From Candidatus Multivoradales bacterium (GTDB taxonomy: Bacteria > Acidobacteriota > Thermoanaerobaculia > Multivoradales > JAHEKO01): a DNA stretch of 64,000 nucleotides. The stretch spans positions 864,001-928,000 of the forward strand of contig CBDFIJ010000004.1 in NCBI GenBank assembly GCA_965248055.1, written 5' to 3'. The position numbers and the translations under genes are program-made. Below the pieces are notes generated by a model. The model was not told where the DNA came from. It was given only the letters and a program-made list of their open reading frames with translations, and made no database searches. The first letter of the stretch is position 1. Each line of letters opens with the position of its first letter. This document shows, one piece after another, positions 37,298 to 43,622 of the stretch.

Positions 37298-39763
37298 TTA
37301 ACGCCCGGTTGAAATAGGATCAAGGATCGGCGGGTAGTCCTCCGGTGCGAAATCCCGTACCAAGTTGTAGATCGCCAGCAGGATGTCTTCGCGGTTCGGC
37401 TTGGAGAAATAGTCGCCGTCGGTTCCGTAGGCCGGTCGGTGGGAAGAAGCGGAAATCGTCTTGGGCGGCGAATCCAACCACTGAAAAGCCTGCTGACGTT
37501 CCACCACCTGCTGCATCATGTAAGCGCTAGCGCCACCGGGAACATCTTCATCGACAAATACCACCCGATTGGTGCGCTCCACCGACTTGCCGATCACCCG
37601 GTGTAGATCAAAGGGAAGCAATGTGCGTACATCAATGACCTCAGCCTCGACCCCCATGGCAGCGAGATGCTCTGCGGCATCCAGCACGATCGGGCAGCAG
37701 GCACCATAGGTAACCACCGTTACGTCGGACCCCGACCGGAGAATTTCGGGAACCCCCAGGGGCACCGTGGCTTCGCTCAGGTTGTTCGGTATTCTTTCTT
37801 TGTTGCGATAGGCGTTGAGAACCTCTACCACCAGCGCCGGGTCGTCCCCCTGGAGCAAGGTGTTGTACATCCCAGCGGCCTGGGTCATGTTGCGCGGCAC
37901 GCACACCACCATGCCACGCAGGAAGTGGACCAAGCCACCCATTGGCGAACCGGAATGCCAAATTCCCTCCAGGCGATGACCGCGGGTACGAACGATCACC
38001 GGCGCCATTTGTTTGCCGCGGGTGCGCCAGCGCAAGGTCGCTAGGTCGTCGGACATGATCTGCAGCGCGTAGAGCACGTAGTCGAGATACTGAACTTCGG
38101 CAATCGGACGCAGCCCGCGCATCGCCAAGCCGATCGCTTGGCCAAGGATGGTCGCCTCGCGAATCCCGACATCGCTGACCCGGCCTACGCCGTACTTCTC
38201 CTGCAGCCCCGCCATCCCCTGGTTGACATCTCCTAGCTTGCCAACGTCTTCGCCAAAGGCCAAGACTCGGGGGTCACGCTCCAGCACTGCGTCAAAAAAA
38301 CCGCTGAGTACCTCGAAACCCTTCACCAGCGGACTGTCGGCGTCGTAGGTGGGTTCGACCACCGGCACCCGCAGCGGCGAGGACTCCGATTCGCAGTACA
38401 AATGATCTGCATAGCGGGCTAGATTTTCGTCGTGGTGCCGCTCTCGCCAGCTAAGCAATGCTTGCCGAGCCACTAGAACCTCTTCACCTCCTGAGGTCAC
38501 AGAATCGGTTCCGCTACTTGCGGTAAGAGCCAATGCCGACACAGCGGCCTGCGCCAGATCCTTGCGAATCACCACCTGCTTGCGCTCCAAACCGGCGATC
38601 AGATCTTGGATTGGCTGGTTCGGCTGGGGGACGACAAGACCGGCAAGCAGTGGAAGCAACTCGCTCCGCTCTCGATCCAGCTCGCCCTGGAATGACTCCC
38701 AGGCCGCCCGTTGAGCGCTGCGCACCGCGTCGCGGTCTTCTTCCTCCATCCGCTGTAACTCACCATCGGTGACCAGACCCCGATCCAGAATCAAACGACG
38801 CAAATGGGGCAGACAGTCGGCTTGGTGCTCCCACTCCAAGCGCTCCGCTGACTTGTAGCGCTCATGACTACCGGAAGTGGAATGGCCTTGCGGCTGAGTT
38901 AGCTCCACCACATGCACCAACGCCGGGACATGCCCTACTCGCGCATCATGAACCGCTTCTCCATAGACCTCGAGTAGGCGATCGTAGTCCCATCCGGGAA
39001 CGCGAAATATGTTGTAGCCAGATCCTTTTTCGCCCTTGGCAAATCCGGCAATGATTTCGGACAGGTTGGACTTGGTGAGTTGATATTCGTTGGGCACCGA
39101 AATGCCGTAACCATCGTCCCAGATCGAGATCACTGCCGGGACTTCCAAAACCCCTATGGCATTGACCGATTCCCAAAATACACCTTCAGCACAACTCGCG
39201 TTGCCGATACTGCCAAACGCGACTTCGTTGCCAAAACGAGAAAACTTCCCTTCCGGGTCCAGATTGGGAAACTCGCGGTAGACCTTGGATGCTTGTGCCA
39301 GACCCACTAAGCGAGGCATTTGGCTGCCGGTCGGCGATTGGTCTGCTGACGAATTAAATCGATCGGTCTGGCGCACAAACTCACCGTGCTGATCCACTAA
39401 CTCGGTGGCGAAGTGAGCGGTCATTTGGCGCCCGCCGGACCAAGGTTCTCTTACTGGGTCTGAATCTGCGTAAAGTTGCGCGAAAAACTGCTGCAGGGTG
39501 ATCGCCCCGAGCGCCAGCATCCAGGTTTGATCCCGGTAGTATCCGGAGCGAAAGTCTCCTGGCCTCACCTGCTTGGCCAGAGCAATCTGCGCCAGCTCCT
39601 TGCCGTCGCCGAAGATTCCGAACTTGGCTTTGCCGGTCAAGACCTCGCGCCGCCCCAAGAGACTCGCTTCCCGGCTGCGCACAGCAAGTCGGTAGTCTTC
39701 GACCAAACTGTCAAGCCGCGATGGATGAAACGATCTTGTCAATTCTTGGCTGCTCTCATTCAT
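37298..39763 (-). CDS. 2-oxoacid dehydrogenase E1, fused alpha/beta subunits
   Basis: GKAKFGIFGDGKE, SGYYRD, GHSTSGSH, FGEDVG and RPIAEVQY motifs. Confidence 0.93.
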   Translation of the reverse strand: MNESSQELTRSFHPSRLDSLVEDYRLAVRSREASLLGRREVLTGKAKFGIFGDGKELAQIALAKQVRPGDFRSGYYRDQTWMLALGAITLQQFFAQLYADSDPVREPWSGGRQMTAHFATELVDQHGEFVRQTDRFNSSADQSPTGSQMPRLVGLAQASKVYREFPNLDPEGKFSRFGNEVAFGSIGNASCAEGVFWESVNAIGVLEVPAVISIWDDGYGISVPNEYQLTKSNLSEIIAGFAKGEKGSGYNIFRVPGWDYDRLLEVYGEAVHDARVGHVPALVHVVELTQPQGHSTSGSHERYKSAERLEWEHQADCLPHLRRLILDRGLVTDGELQRMEEEDRDAVRSAQRAAWESFQGELDRERSELLPLLAGLVVPQPNQPIQDLIAGLERKQVVIRKDLAQAAVSALALTASSGTDSVTSGGEEVLVARQALLSWRERHHDENLARYADHLYCESESSPLRVPVVEPTYDADSPLVKGFEVLSGFFDAVLERDPRVLAFGEDVGKLGDVNQGMAGLQEKYGVGRVSDVGIREATILGQAIGLAMRGLRPIAEVQYLDYVLYALQIMSDDLATLRWRTRGKQMAPVIVRTRGHRLEGIWHSGSPMGGLVHFLRGMVVCVPRNMTQAAGMYNTLLQGDDPALVVEVLNAYRNKERIPNNLSEATVPLGVPEILRSGSDVTVVTYGACCPIVLDAAEHLAAMGVEAEVIDVRTLLPFDLHRVIGKSVERTNRVVFVDEDVPGGASAYMMQQVVERQQAFQWLDSPPKTISASSHRPAYGTDGDYFSKPNREDILLAIYNLVRDFAPEDYPPILDPISTGR

Positions 39764-39766
39764 GCT

Positions 39767-41116
39767 CTAGTTCGGCTCCGCGATCGTGCCGTTCCCAGCC
39801 GCAACCGAGAACGGATTATCGCCCGATGCAGACAGCAACTCTCTCAGCAGCGCGATGTTCATCCGATGGCCAGACCGTTCTGCGGTGACCTTGCCACGCA
39901 CCGGGTAGCCCAGCAGGTAGAGGTCACCAATGATGTCCAGCACTTTGTGGCGGGCAAATTCATTTTCAAATCGGAGCTCGGTATTGAGCACTCCTTCGTC
40001 GCCGACCAGGATGCAGTTGTTCAACCGTCCACCAACCGCCAAACCCAGCTCCGCCATCATCGCCAAGTCACTCATGAAACCAAAAGTCCGGGCCGAGGCA
40101 ATCTGATCGGTGTAGTGATCCGCACCGTCGAGTTCAAATGCACAAGTTTGGTCGCCCACCGGCGGCGGGTAACTCAATTGATACCCGACCGAGAATCCGT
40201 CGTAGGGTTCGATGCGCAGGCGGCGATCTCCATCTTCGATTTGGTAGGCCCGGTCAATTACGACTTCGCGACGACCGACTGGCTGATCCACCACCTCAGC
40301 CTTGCGGATCGCCTGACAAAACTCGGCGGCAGAACCGTCCAACACCGGGATCTCGCCGTTAACCCGAACCATCAGGTTGGTAATGCCAAATGCATGCAAC
40401 GCCGACAGCAGATGCTCGACCGTCTTGATGTGCTCGCCGCCGCCAGAAACCGTGGTCGCGTAATTGGTATTGGCGACGCTGCTGACGTGCGAAGGGATCA
40501 CGCTGCGCCCTGGGATGGTCATGAAATGAATGCCGGTATCGGGCGGCAAAGGGTGCATCGTCATTGCCGTGTCTTGTCCGGAGTGCAGGCCAATCCCCGA
40601 GAGTACGGTTGACCCCGATAAGGTGCGCTGAGGGCGATCACTACGCTCTATCAAGGAAAACACCGGTGGTGAGCGAAATTTTTCAACCGCACCAATCTTC
40701 ATGGCTCGTTGTTCCAAGGAACGGCGCAAACTATCGTCGGCAGAAACCTGGAGGGCGAAGCCAAATCCCTGATTGAGTCGTTCAACAACGCTGTGGAGCG
40801 AGAGGGGCTTCTCCAAGTAGTCTAAGGCACCCATCTTGATTGCCGAGGCAGCGGTCGAGGTCGTCCCGTGCCCTGACATGACGATCACTGCGACCGCGGA
40901 ATCGATCTCCAGAAGCTCTTGCAAGGTCTCCAGGCCGTCTCGATCCGGCAGCCAAACATCCAGGAAGGCAACCCGCGGGCGGTGCTCTCGATACAGGGCA
41001 AGCGCTTCTTCGCTGCTTCCGGCACACAGCGGCTCGCATCCTTCGTCGCGCACAATTTGCGCCAAGGTACTACGAATGCCCGGTTCGTCATCAACGATCA
41101 AAACATGGTTGCTCAT
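39767..41116 (-). CDS. lpxC: Response-regulator receiver domain fused to UDP-3-O-acyl-N-acetylglucosamine deacetylase
   Basis: REC: VLIVDDE, FLD53VWLPDRDG, MSGHG, EKP. LpxC: QRTL..GIGLHSG, TVEHLLSAL, EIPVLDGSA, ARTFGF, RHKVLDIIGDL, SGH. Confidence 0.92.
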   Translation of the reverse strand: MSNHVLIVDDEPGIRSTLAQIVRDEGCEPLCAGSSEEALALYREHRPRVAFLDVWLPDRDGLETLQELLEIDSAVAVIVMSGHGTTSTAASAIKMGALDYLEKPLSLHSVVERLNQGFGFALQVSADDSLRRSLEQRAMKIGAVEKFRSPPVFSLIERSDRPQRTLSGSTVLSGIGLHSGQDTAMTMHPLPPDTGIHFMTIPGRSVIPSHVSSVANTNYATTVSGGGEHIKTVEHLLSALHAFGITNLMVRVNGEIPVLDGSAAEFCQAIRKAEVVDQPVGRREVVIDRAYQIEDGDRRLRIEPYDGFSVGYQLSYPPPVGDQTCAFELDGADHYTDQIASARTFGFMSDLAMMAELGLAVGGRLNNCILVGDEGVLNTELRFENEFARHKVLDIIGDLYLLGYPVRGKVTAERSGHRMNIALLRELLSASGDNPFSVAAGNGTIAEPN

Positions 41117-41169
41117 GCTGGTTACGATCCTTCTTAGCGCACTTCTTGAGTAGACCCACGGAAGGCTGA

Positions 41170-42969
41170 TTGCACCTCCACCACCTCCGTGGCATTGTAG
41201 CCCTAGTGGCCTATCCCAGTCCCAATATCCTCGTCCCTAAACCGCGGGACATCCGTGTTGGCAATGCGTTCCCAACCCCGCAGTCGGTGGCCCTGCGAGG
41301 CCCCTGGTCCGAAGACCTGGCCCATTCCTTCGATGCCGACGCCAACACTGGGTGGTCGATCGAAATCCAGATCGACGCAGAGATACCGAGTCAGCACTAT
41401 CGATTGAATCTCACTAGCTCGGGTGCGGTCCTCCAGACCTCGGACCGCTCTGGGGCATGGAATGGGCTGCAAACCACTCGCCAATGGTTGCAGGCACACC
41501 AAGCGCTCCCTCAAATATCAGCGCTGTCAGTGGTCGATGGCCCGGATTTCGTGCGCCGAGGAATCACACTCGATATCAGCCGTTGCCGAGTGCCGCAAAT
41601 GAGCCAGCTCTACGCCCTGGTCGATAGCCTGGCGGGATGGAAGATCAATCAACTCCAGCTCTATACCGAACACACCTTCGCCTACGCTGGCCACAAGCAG
41701 GCGTGGAACGGCTGCTCTCCGATAACCGCGGAGGAAATTCATGCCTTAAGTACTTATTGTGCCCAGCGCGAGGTTCGACTGGTGCCCAATCAAAACAGCC
41801 TGGGTCATTTTCATCGCTGGTTGAAACACGCCGCGTACCGTCCACTTGCCGAATGCCCACAGGGAATCGAACACCCTTTTAGCTCGGCAGTCGAGCCTTA
41901 CGGACTGTGTGCCACCGATCCGCGGGTGTTCGATCTGCTCAGCGACCTCTACGGTCAACTGCTGCCCCAGATCGACGGCGACCGAGTACACGTCGGCTGC
42001 GATGAGACCATCGACCTAGGACGGTGTCGCTCGAAGTCCGAGGCTGCCGCACGGGGAGTTCCGGCCCTGTTCACTGACTACGTGCTGCGCCTGCGCCAAC
42101 TGGCGGCCCGCTGGGATCGCAAGCTGGAGATCTGGGCGGATACCCCGTTGGCGAATCCAGAGATGGTCGACCAACTCCCGGACGACGTACGCCTTCAGGT
42201 CTGGGGTTACGAGGCCGAGCACCCCTTTGACCAACAATTGAGTCTATTGCACGGTAGAGACATCGACATCTGTCCGGGTACCAGCAGTTGGTGCAGCTTG
42301 GCGGGGCGGTCCAACAATGCTCTGGCCAACCTCAGTGCGGCTGCTCAAGCCGGAGTCGGCCATGCGGCGGGTTATGTAATCACCGATTGGGGTGATTACG
42401 GACATCCGCAGCCGCCTTCGGTGAGCACACTTGGTTATCTCGCAGGTTCGGACCTGGCTTGGAACGCGGTTGGCCGAGCCAGTGACCAGTACCGGGTTCT
42501 GCTCCAGCAGCATCTGGGGGATGGCATTGGTGCAGCCCTGTTTGACCTGGGCACGGCTCACGAAGCGTTGGCCACCCCTTGTTTCAACGGCACTCCCCTG
42601 TTTCATCTGTTGTTTCATTGGCAAGATTCGCTGTCCCATGGTCGCTATCGGGGCCTGGGAGCGAGCGATCTCAAAACCGCCAAGAGTGCGATCGACCGGG
42701 TTGCTGATCCAGGGAGTCACTCGCTCAAGAACGACATCCTGTGGCTTCGCAAAGGCCTGCAACTGTCGTGTGACTTAGGCCTCGCCCGCCTCGAACACCA
42801 CGACCGGATCGACCAACTACCACCCAGGGTTCGCGCCGATCTCGCCGATCGGCTGGCTACTTGGAGGTCGGACTACGCCGAACTGTGGCTGTCGACGTCG
42901 AGAACCGGTGGATTTGACGAATCGGTGGCACCGCTTGAGTCGCTGGGGGCAGCGCTTTCCACCGGCTGA
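41170..42969 (+). CDS. Glycoside hydrolase family 20 (beta-N-acetylhexosaminidase-like)
   Basis: RGITLDISR, KINQLQLYTEHTF, HVGCDE catalytic motif and TDWGDYGH. Confidence 0.9.
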   Translation: MHLHHLRGIVALVAYPSPNILVPKPRDIRVGNAFPTPQSVALRGPWSEDLAHSFDADANTGWSIEIQIDAEIPSQHYRLNLTSSGAVLQTSDRSGAWNGLQTTRQWLQAHQALPQISALSVVDGPDFVRRGITLDISRCRVPQMSQLYALVDSLAGWKINQLQLYTEHTFAYAGHKQAWNGCSPITAEEIHALSTYCAQREVRLVPNQNSLGHFHRWLKHAAYRPLAECPQGIEHPFSSAVEPYGLCATDPRVFDLLSDLYGQLLPQIDGDRVHVGCDETIDLGRCRSKSEAAARGVPALFTDYVLRLRQLAARWDRKLEIWADTPLANPEMVDQLPDDVRLQVWGYEAEHPFDQQLSLLHGRDIDICPGTSSWCSLAGRSNNALANLSAAAQAGVGHAAGYVITDWGDYGHPQPPSVSTLGYLAGSDLAWNAVGRASDQYRVLLQQHLGDGIGAALFDLGTAHEALATPCFNGTPLFHLLFHWQDSLSHGRYRGLGASDLKTAKSAIDRVADPGSHSLKNDILWLRKGLQLSCDLGLARLEHHDRIDQLPPRVRADLADRLATWRSDYAELWLSTSRTGGFDESVAPLESLGAALSTG

Positions 42970-43622
42970 CGCTGATCGGCATCGGTCACCTTGCGCGCTC
43001 CCAAGTAGAATGCCAGCACCCCGAACATACCGATCACGTGATAGAGATCATTGTGATTGAAGTTGCGGTGCAAGGTGAAGCCTGAGCGTTGGATGATCGA
43101 GGCGAGGGCAGTGATGCCGATCGCAGTCAGCCACCAGCGCATACTCGCTTGCTGGTGTCCGCGCACCAAGGTGGTTGCCGCTAGCAAGCCGACCACCACC
43201 AAAGCAAATCCATAGCCAGCGACCACGAACTTAAAATCACTGTGCCGTGCCATCCAGGTCGCATAGACCAGGAAATGTGCTCCTGCCAACAACATCACAA
43301 CTGTGCGCAGCGGATTGCGGGCGCTGGCGTAGGCAGTGCCCACCATCATCGAATAACTCGCCAGCCCCATGGCAAAAAAGACCGTACGCCACAAACCACT
43401 GTCCAACCAGCTAGGCGACTGCACCGCAAACGCGTGTGCGACGCCACCGGCGAAAGCGGCGACCGCCAAAGCGATTAAGGCGACAGCCCAATACCAGCGG
43501 GCGCTGGAACGGGCGCCCAGTTGCGAAGTGGAATTCTCCTTCCACAGGCGTCGAGCGCACAGCACCGCAACTAAGGCGACCAACAAATCGGTGAAAAACG
43601 TCATCGGTTCAGAAATCGGCAC
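42873..43622 (-). CDS. Multi-pass membrane protein (DUF6962-like)
   Basis: EPMTFFTD, GGVAH and FNHNDLYH motifs; about 7 TM helices. Confidence 0.75.
   Translation of the reverse strand: MPISEPMTFFTDLLVALVAVLCARRLWKENSTSQLGARSSARWYWAVALIALAVAAFAGGVAHAFAVQSPSWLDSGLWRTVFFAMGLASYSMMVGTAYASARNPLRTVVMLLAGAHFLVYATWMARHSDFKFVVAGYGFALVVVGLLAATTLVRGHQQASMRWWLTAIGITALASIIQRSGFTLHRNFNHNDLYHVIGMFGVLAFYLGARKVTDADQRQPVESAAPSDSSGATDSSNPPVLDVDSHSSA

Follow-up and report, generated by a model that had tools for sequence, protein, structure and literature searches.

What does a phospho-receiver domain do when it is attached to the enzyme that commits a cell to lipid A synthesis? The question is raised by a gene in a 64,000-nucleotide stretch of contig CBDFIJ010000004.1 (positions 864,001 to 928,000; hereafter the window, to which plain positions below refer) from a Candidatus Multivoradales bacterium of the Acidobacteriota, in which a receiver (REC) domain is joined in frame to LpxC. 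LpxC catalyses the committed step in the synthesis of lipid A, and what is understood of how its activity keeps pace with growth of the envelope comes largely from a few Proteobacteria, in which regulated proteolysis dominates. On comparative sequence evidence we favour, with moderate confidence, a reading in which transcriptional two-component control of lpxC has here been replaced by direct phospho-control of the enzyme, with a membrane kinase linked to a DUF4390 protein acting on D53 of the REC domain. The genome itself is labelled G000 below, those of relatives carry other G numbers, and loci carry L numbers.

The fusion gene and its conservation

The gene occupies 39767..41116 on the minus strand, which the original prediction of this fusion had left unstated, and runs from an ATG as a single frame of 449 amino acids. 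Its REC domain (residues 5–114; 40775..41104, minus strand, with the D53 codon at 40958–40960) matches Pfam Response_reg (PF00072) at 90.2 bits against a cut-off of 30.2. The LpxC catalytic domain (residues 163–428; 39833..40630, minus strand), delimited by Pfam, conservation and structure superposition, matches PF03331 at 290.5 bits against a cut-off of 27, over positions 1–267 of a 268-position profile, and the NCBIfam lpxC equivalog TIGR00325 at 243.4 bits against a cut-off of 187.25. Every REC, zinc and catalytic motif previously read from the sequence is present where it had been placed: DDE at residues 9–11, D53 within FLDVWLP, MSGHG at 80–84 and KP at 103–104 in the receiver, and QRTL from residue 163 (nucleotide 40630), TVEH, RHKVLD, SGH and ARTFGF in LpxC. 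The intervening linker (residues 115–162; 40631..40774, minus strand) comprises the end of an extended helix α5 (107–126), a second helix (128–137) and a proline-rich run into LpxC, as assigned by DSSP on an AlphaFold2 model. The C-terminal tail (residues 429–449; 39770..39832, minus strand) is predicted to be disordered and lacks conservation in the alignment. Judged from its sequence, the gene product is an enzymatic response regulator, made up of a phosphorylatable REC domain, a helical linker and an LpxC domain predicted to be catalytically competent.

The AlphaFold2 model, built on an alignment, has a mean predicted local distance difference test score (pLDDT) of 88.4 and a predicted template modelling score (pTM) of 0.86, with pLDDT below 50 over residues 437–449. 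The REC part adopts the canonical five-stranded α/β fold, with strands at residues 4–8, 28–32, 49–53, 76–81 and 99–102 alternating with helices at 12–24, 35–45, 61–71, 86–94 and 107–126. The modelled LpxC part superposes on solved LpxC chains with template modelling scores of 0.83–0.95 (by target length) and root-mean-square deviations of 1.4–2.4 Å at 35–39% identity; no solved chain among the structure-search matches spans both REC and LpxC. Prediction of a complex between REC (residues 1–140) and LpxC (151–436) scored 0.00 in both of two runs, which, with controls not folded, counts neither way.

Two established families were considered and rejected for the whole protein. The best NCBIfam match of its REC domain is the NtrX model NF051870, at 97.5 bits against a cut-off of 600 and over model positions 2–112; the protein lacks Sigma54_activat and HTH_8, and only its REC is NtrX-like. 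The bifunctional LpxC/FabZ model (NF009667) scores 204.2 bits against a cut-off of 465, with the LpxC part alone matched and no FabZ domain found. LpxC–FabZ is, as had been remarked, the familiar LpxC fusion, and it likewise joins LpxC to a second domain in one polypeptide. However, its partner is a C-terminal dehydratase that provides metabolic coupling, whereas the partner in REC–LpxC is an N-terminal signalling domain.

An assembly chimera can be ruled out. Positions 39500–41400 were spanned by contigs from four of four sequencing runs with no differences and no gaps (the runs come from one sample, maybe the assembly's own source), and the same fusion was recovered as one intact frame of 423–451 amino acids in all 26 loci fetched from other genomes. 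Both Pfam domains were present in each of the best 120 database matches. In the 3.4-Mb genome, which is 97.7% complete, the fusion gene is the sole LpxC match, so that no second, stand-alone lpxC was found; LpxA, LpxB and LpxK are present in one copy each, which indirectly supports the predicted deacetylase activity of the fusion on UDP-3-O-acyl-GlcNAc.

Across 45 aligned fusions sharing 40–87% identity with the window protein, D9, D10, D53, W55, S81, K103 and P104 of the receiver are invariant, as are E234, H235, T344, F347, H390, K391, D394, D398 and H417 of LpxC. We take these nine LpxC residues to be the counterparts of E. coli E78, H79, T191, F192, H238, K239, D242, D246 and H265; H235, H390 and D394 would accordingly be the zinc ligands, and E234 and H417 catalytic residues. 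In a set of 36 sequences drawn from several phyla, D10, D53, W55, S81, K103 and P104 are identical throughout and REC position 100, the aromatic switch residue, is always tyrosine or phenylalanine; the LpxC zinc and catalytic residues are present in 34–35 of the 36, the gaps tracing to one copy truncated at a contig end and one frameshifted copy. This pattern argues that the REC and LpxC halves are both intact and under constraint. At L105 (863–4247), from a long-read metagenome-assembled genome (MAG), the fusion is frameshifted and stops at 222 amino acids, and the upstream kinase aligns in two pieces; an indel error is the probable cause and decay a possible one.

The architecture is widespread and extends over several phyla. 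The first two tallies that follow include the genomes G002, G063, G088 and G189, on which no claim depends. Among 41 relatives, counting the genome itself, 33 have a full-length match and five give fragmentary or ambiguous matches; G027 and G031 carry a stand-alone lpxC, and G036 (same order, 8 Mb, 94% complete) returned REC matches and no LpxC match with the fusion as query. Of 301 Acidobacteriota genomes sampled, 23 contain a full-length fusion and no other LpxC match; nine have no match at 1e-30, and in the remainder all of the matches listed cover the LpxC part only. Among genomes of named species, 35 of the 80 loci kept are fusions. Within the Acidobacteriota these fall in the Thermoanaerobaculia (which hold the closest named relatives, at 59–60% identity), Holophagae, Terriglobia and Aminicenantes. 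Outside the phylum, fusions are found in Syntrophobacter, Syntrophorhabdus, Desulfocapsaceae, Binatia, Thermodesulfovibrionia (Nitrospirota) and Nitrospinaceae (Nitrospinota), and Desulfobacterota-type MAGs are also among the carriers. One carrier, Desulfopila sp. IMCC35006, is cultured, which makes the role of the receiver open to experiment.

Response regulators with enzymatic outputs are well known: in CheB, PleD/WspR and RpfG, phosphorylation gates an enzyme rather than DNA binding. REC–LpxC shares their familiar layout of an N-terminal REC, a linker and a C-terminal catalytic domain, and differs in having an unrelated output domain. Public annotations label these fusion proteins simply LpxC. 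A literature search, judged by titles and the openings of abstracts, found no published REC–LpxC fusion and no report of LpxC as a response-regulator output. The words 'receiver', 'fusion' and 'fused' are absent from a 2025 review of lipid A regulation (PMC12444477), and a preprint on HD-GYP architectures mentions the Desulfovibrio vulgaris operon only. REC–LpxC is a real and conserved enzymatic response regulator that is apparently undescribed.

Unfused lpxC clusters and the DUF4390-linked kinase

In the two relatives with a stand-alone lpxC, G031 and G027, the fused REC finds its best match (50% identity) in the receiver of a 455-residue sigma-54 regulator (REC, Sigma54_activat, HTH_8) encoded 3–4 kb from lpxC. 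Between the two genes lie one for a DUF4390 protein and one for a 741–748-residue kinase (HAMP, PAS, HisKA, HATPase). This order of lpxC, DUF4390 gene, kinase and sigma-54 regulator is colinear in 15 of 15 acidobacterial loci examined, namely those of G031 and G027 and 13 others picked because their DUF4390 and lpxC coordinates adjoined, and the gene bordering the cluster on the lpxC side is smpB in G031, in G027 and at three further loci. The lpxC-linked regulator reaches 477.5 bits against the NtrX model (cut-off 600), and the linker of the fusion aligns weakly to its REC–AAA+ linker, up to regulator residue 133. All 27 fusion RECs and all 15 RECs of lpxC-linked regulators have a tryptophan two residues after the phosphoacceptor (D+2), which each of 11 other regulators lacks. 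In trees, the RECs of fusions, lpxC-linked regulators and pre-fusion regulators are set apart from most other sigma-54 regulators (support 96/97; two changes in the wide tree).

Promoters separate the two arrangements as well. We scanned upstream of each gene for a sigma-54 element, defined as TGGCAC-N5-TTGCW with GG and GC required and at most two mismatches allowed. At a distance of 20–95 nucleotides, such an element precedes 16 of 22 stand-alone lpxC genes (12 of 15 linked to the cluster and 4 of 7 unlinked). By contrast, it precedes 2 of 26 fusions, and none of the 26 when at most one mismatch is allowed; the background is about 2% per 380-nucleotide window. In our window, promoter scans of the short divergent intergenic region 5′ of the fusion (41117..41169) revealed no sigma-54 promoter, and the best match to a −24/−12 element within 350 nucleotides 5′ of the gene has five mismatches. 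No sigma-70-like site was found upstream by scan, and AAGAAGGA lies about 13 nucleotides before the fusion ATG.

The stand-alone genes, with their sigma-54 promoters and clusters, fit a published case. In D. vulgaris, according to Rajeev et al. 2011 (PMC3333781), the DVU2931 kinase and the DVU2934 sigma-54 response regulator have lpxC as their single mapped target; the same paper records DVU2931/DVU2934 orthologues in Acidobacterium capsulatum and an lpxC gene adjoining the orthologous operon in S. fumaroxidans. Compared by this published description, D. vulgaris and the unfused clusters both have an lpxC-dedicated two-component system with a sigma-54 regulator. However, control in D. vulgaris is transcriptional and exerted by separate proteins, whereas the fusion is devoid of AAA+ and DNA-binding domains and its REC is covalently attached to the enzyme. 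NtrY/NtrX systems offer a second likeness, in a kinase with several transmembrane (TM) segments, HAMP, PAS, HisKA and HATPase domains, in an NtrX-like REC and in a role in the cell envelope. In Rhodobacter sphaeroides, as given in Lemmer et al. 2020 (PMC7240162), loss of NtrYX raised the lpxC transcript 8.8-fold, an indirect, transcriptional effect, whereas the fusion contains no AAA+ or helix–turn–helix (HTH) domain. The kinases described here have no NtrY N-terminal domain listed by Pfam, and no NCBIfam model reached its cut-off for that of G031, and we therefore refer to them as having NtrY architecture only.

The fusion-bearing genome retains one DUF4390 gene, directly followed by a gene for a 719-residue kinase (G000:C4:1161186-1163324; locus L027:7172-9331) with the same architecture as the lpxC-linked kinases (HAMP, PAS, HisKA, HATPase_c) and 34% identity to the G031 kinase over its full length. 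The kinase has three hydrophobic or TM segments, a loop of about 180 residues that would lie outside the cytoplasm and a fourth segment, followed by HAMP–PAS–HisKA–HATPase. The DUF4390 protein has a signal-peptide-like segment and is probably periplasmic, and together the two look like an envelope-facing sensor. The locus has smpB on one flank and yqeY and selB on the opposite one, and no response regulator is encoded beside the kinase. Because the smpB and DUF4390–kinase flanks match those of G031, the locus looks like the same one minus lpxC and the regulator. It lies about 256 kb from the fusion gene; no HATPase_c match falls within the contig range of the window, consistent with the earlier statement that the window holds no kinase.

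The kinase tree follows taxonomy. In it, the G000 kinase falls with those linked to lpxC in G031 and G027 (support 95), and the kinase of G202, a genome that bears the fusion, has as its sister the lpxC-linked one of G180, a member of the same family (support 100). The histidine box is nearly invariant and the G1 and G2 boxes are intact in all 32 kinases examined, and a cognate-type kinase has been kept intact in six of six fusion-bearing genomes checked, including G000. The G000 kinase itself has an unusually long terminal branch (length 1.77; median 0.36), with its histidine and ATP-binding boxes intact. At 12 of 35 fusion loci, all of them non-acidobacterial, a near-full-length kinase homologue, encoded on the strand of the fusion, terminates just upstream of it, and in these 12 the fusion occupies the slot held by the sigma-54 regulator in the unfused cluster.

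We propose that, in related bacteria, the kinase and the sigma-54 regulator switch on transcription of a stand-alone lpxC, and that in this lineage the regulator and the stand-alone lpxC were lost and the regulator's type of REC came to be joined to LpxC. The membrane kinase at G000:C4:1161186-1163324 would be the most likely phospho-donor to D53, an envelope signal would act on the LpxC enzyme and not on a promoter, and phosphorylation would alter LpxC activity. The original prediction had raised direct two-component control of lipid A synthesis; it gains from the invariant phospho-site, from the kinase adjacency in 12 of 35 loci and from the orphaned kinase orthologue, whereas the phosphotransfer from kinase to D53 and its effect on LpxC activity are steps that we infer. 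If the proposal is right, a kinase-driven switch on LpxC itself would be a different solution from regulated proteolysis and a new mode of LpxC control, and the uncharacterised DUF4390 protein and its kinase would gain a concrete, testable output. Four things are new in this genome: the arrangement is unlinked, the smpB–DUF4390–kinase locus has been emptied, the sigma-54 promoter is gone, and a native kinase would be paired with a non-native fusion.

Origin of the fusion and competing explanations

In a careful tree, the LpxC domains of 27 fusions lie on one side of a branch among acidobacterial sequences (100/100). A wider FastTree of 124 rows gave one clade (support 98) that holds all 57 fusions together with six stand-alone LpxCs, with the other 61 stand-alone LpxCs, including all acidobacterial ones, outside it. 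This placement implies that acidobacterial fusions are not derived from the local lineage of stand-alone lpxC genes, whereas the kinases that go with them are native. The simplest reading would be that the fusion arrived laterally and replaced the resident lpxC and regulator; accelerated evolution after fusion could also account for the placement. More tentatively, and with clearly less confidence than we place in phospho-control itself, REC–LpxC may be a laterally mobile plug-in that ousts the lpxC and sigma-54 regulator already in place and couples to the host's own envelope-sensing kinase, the docking helix of which is nearly invariant. Residues of LpxC that seemed specific to fusions were tried as a map of REC contacts and set aside, being common also to the six stand-alone LpxCs within the fusion clade.

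Intermediate arrangements are found too. Those six stand-alone genes each have a sigma-54 regulator directly upstream (gap of about 35–165 nucleotides), preceded in two cases by the kinase. At L103, from the Nitrospinaceae, REC, sigma-54 AAA+, lid and LpxC are joined in one 661-residue protein. The regulators just upstream of lpxC at L102, L107 and L108 align to the G031 regulator only to about residue 383–388; they may already lack the HTH domain, a possible step toward fusion. Kinase–regulator–lpxC, REC–AAA+–LpxC, kinase–REC–LpxC and unlinked REC–LpxC would together form a rare stepwise record of a passage from transcriptional to post-translational control.

Several observations weigh against the proposed scheme or parts of it. 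No kinase was ever found beside the fusion in the acidobacterial loci examined, and with the candidate 256 kb away the pairing in this genome rests on homology and on patterns of loss. A single clean clade of fusions from all phyla was not obtained: on the FastTree the fusion or stand-alone label needs five changes, and the history is not one clean event. Nor did the trees name a donor for the REC domain, as an approximately unbiased test made no choice between placements (p = 0.506) and the wide REC tree had too few columns. Finally, the direction of the effect is a matter of argument and not of observation. We lean towards activation or relief of inhibition, because a sigma-54 circuit can only activate and keeping the old sign requires the phosphorylated form to have more LpxC activity; CheB and receivers of the NtrC1/DctD type act by relieving inhibition. 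Two further proteins of this genome also tell against the scheme, and each bears on an alternative.

The first is a distant LapB-like protein of 466 amino acids (G000:C4:1333174-1334574, minus strand), found by way of a Pfam zinc-ribbon model and comprising an N-terminal TM segment, tetratricopeptide repeats and a C-terminal zinc ribbon. With this candidate found, the idea that the genome has no LapB route was dropped, and proteolytic control of LpxC may be present as well. One could then suppose that the REC governs the lifetime of LpxC and not its rate, its phospho-state exposing or hiding a degron or recruiting a protease or adaptor in the manner of RssB, and so replacing or complementing FtsH/LapB turnover. 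Proteolysis is the established control of LpxC amount in E. coli (PMC3333781), NCBIfam RssB models match the REC weakly (64.7 bits), and the evidence for a live phospho-site fits this alternative equally well. However, a degron is not specifically indicated by any feature of the sequence, and the C-terminal tail lacks conservation; the LapB-like protein, aligned along the whole LapB profile, scores 68 bits against a cut-off of 363, and the Pfam zinc-ribbon model used in the search is non-specific, with matches in 10 of 14 control genomes. We regard control of lifetime as unlikely. The FtsH/LapB/YejM system of E. coli differs from REC–LpxC in acting by regulated proteolysis through an adaptor and not by a covalently attached phospho-switch.

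The second protein is an orphan sigma-54 response regulator (G000:C4:169880-171226; L028:5878-7320, minus strand), the best match in this genome to the lpxC-linked regulator (51% identity). G000 encodes 11 receivers and about 10 kinases, the orphans being four of the receivers and two or three of the kinases; that scarcity of orphan kinases also speaks for the pairing proposed above. D53 might be served by another donor, such as acetyl phosphate or a further orphan kinase (the large one at C4:690924-692171 being an example), with the DUF4390-linked kinase serving the orphan regulator, which could be its partner instead of or beside the fusion. In the careful tree, the fusion RECs have the orphan regulator and one from G193 as sisters (87/78), and this G193 relative lies 2.7 kb downstream of a DUF4390-type kinase. 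However, G027 and G031 carry separate orthologues of the orphan (63–65%) besides the regulator adjacent to the kinase, which makes the orphan a paralogue of the lpxC-linked regulator and not the adjacent partner of the kinase in those genomes. Its REC also has neither the D+2 tryptophan nor the SGH and EKPLS signatures common to fusion and kinase-adjacent regulator RECs, and a kinase is followed directly by the fusion in 12 of 35 loci. We regard another donor as improbable. The orphan may be a second output of the same kinase. It is encoded directly downstream of an HtrA/DegP-like protease gene (L028:7428-9041).

Least probable by far is a silent structural or dimerisation module, with LpxC constitutive or controlled elsewhere, which would suit the missing kinase neighbour in acidobacterial loci and a single-chain model whose pTM of 0.86 is compatible with a fixed architecture, but pseudo-receivers typically lose acidic-pocket or acceptor residues, whereas here none of the 45 fusions departs from D9, D10, D53, S81 and K103, all 36 sequences compared across phyla share one phospho-site and the cognate-type kinase is intact in six of six genomes checked.

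Neighbourhood of the fusion gene

Downstream of the fusion, three bases separate its TAG stop from the ATG of a gene for an 821-residue 2-oxoacid dehydrogenase E1 (37298..39763, minus strand), which is probably co-transcribed with it. The E1 is itself a fusion within one open reading frame (ORF), with an α part (E1_dh, 44–355) and a β part (Transket_pyr, 488–648; Transketolase_C, 673–773). The original prediction placed E1 correctly at 3 bp and saw in it a possible link to acyl-CoA supply, a part that did not hold up since the adjacency is not conserved. Among 11 loci of the family, E1 directly adjoins the fusion in L003 and L006 and lies about 1.1–1.3 kb away in L005 and L008; it is also found at L069, and beside the fusion in none of 15 loci fetched with 6-kb flanks. 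A functional link between fusion and E1 was rejected, the adjacency being confined to close relatives.

A second, shorter pair of kinase and sigma-54 regulator lies 1–4 kb upstream of the fusion in three of five loci of family f54 (to which L029, L032 and L033 belong) and in G030; L043 and L084 are listed with them, L084 with the regulator part. The RECs of this second pair are only 27–39% identical to the fusion REC.

On the other side of the fusion, and divergent from it, is a GH20-like hexosaminidase gene (41170-42969, plus strand; Pfam), which also adjoins the fusion in G001 (L003), G003 (L010) and an Acidobacteria MAG (L071). The placement of an enzyme releasing N-acetylglucosamine (GlcNAc) beside a gene of a pathway that consumes UDP-GlcNAc may or may not be meaningful. 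At its 3′ end, the GH20-like ORF shares 97 nucleotides with a DUF6962 ORF on the opposite strand (42873-43622, minus strand).

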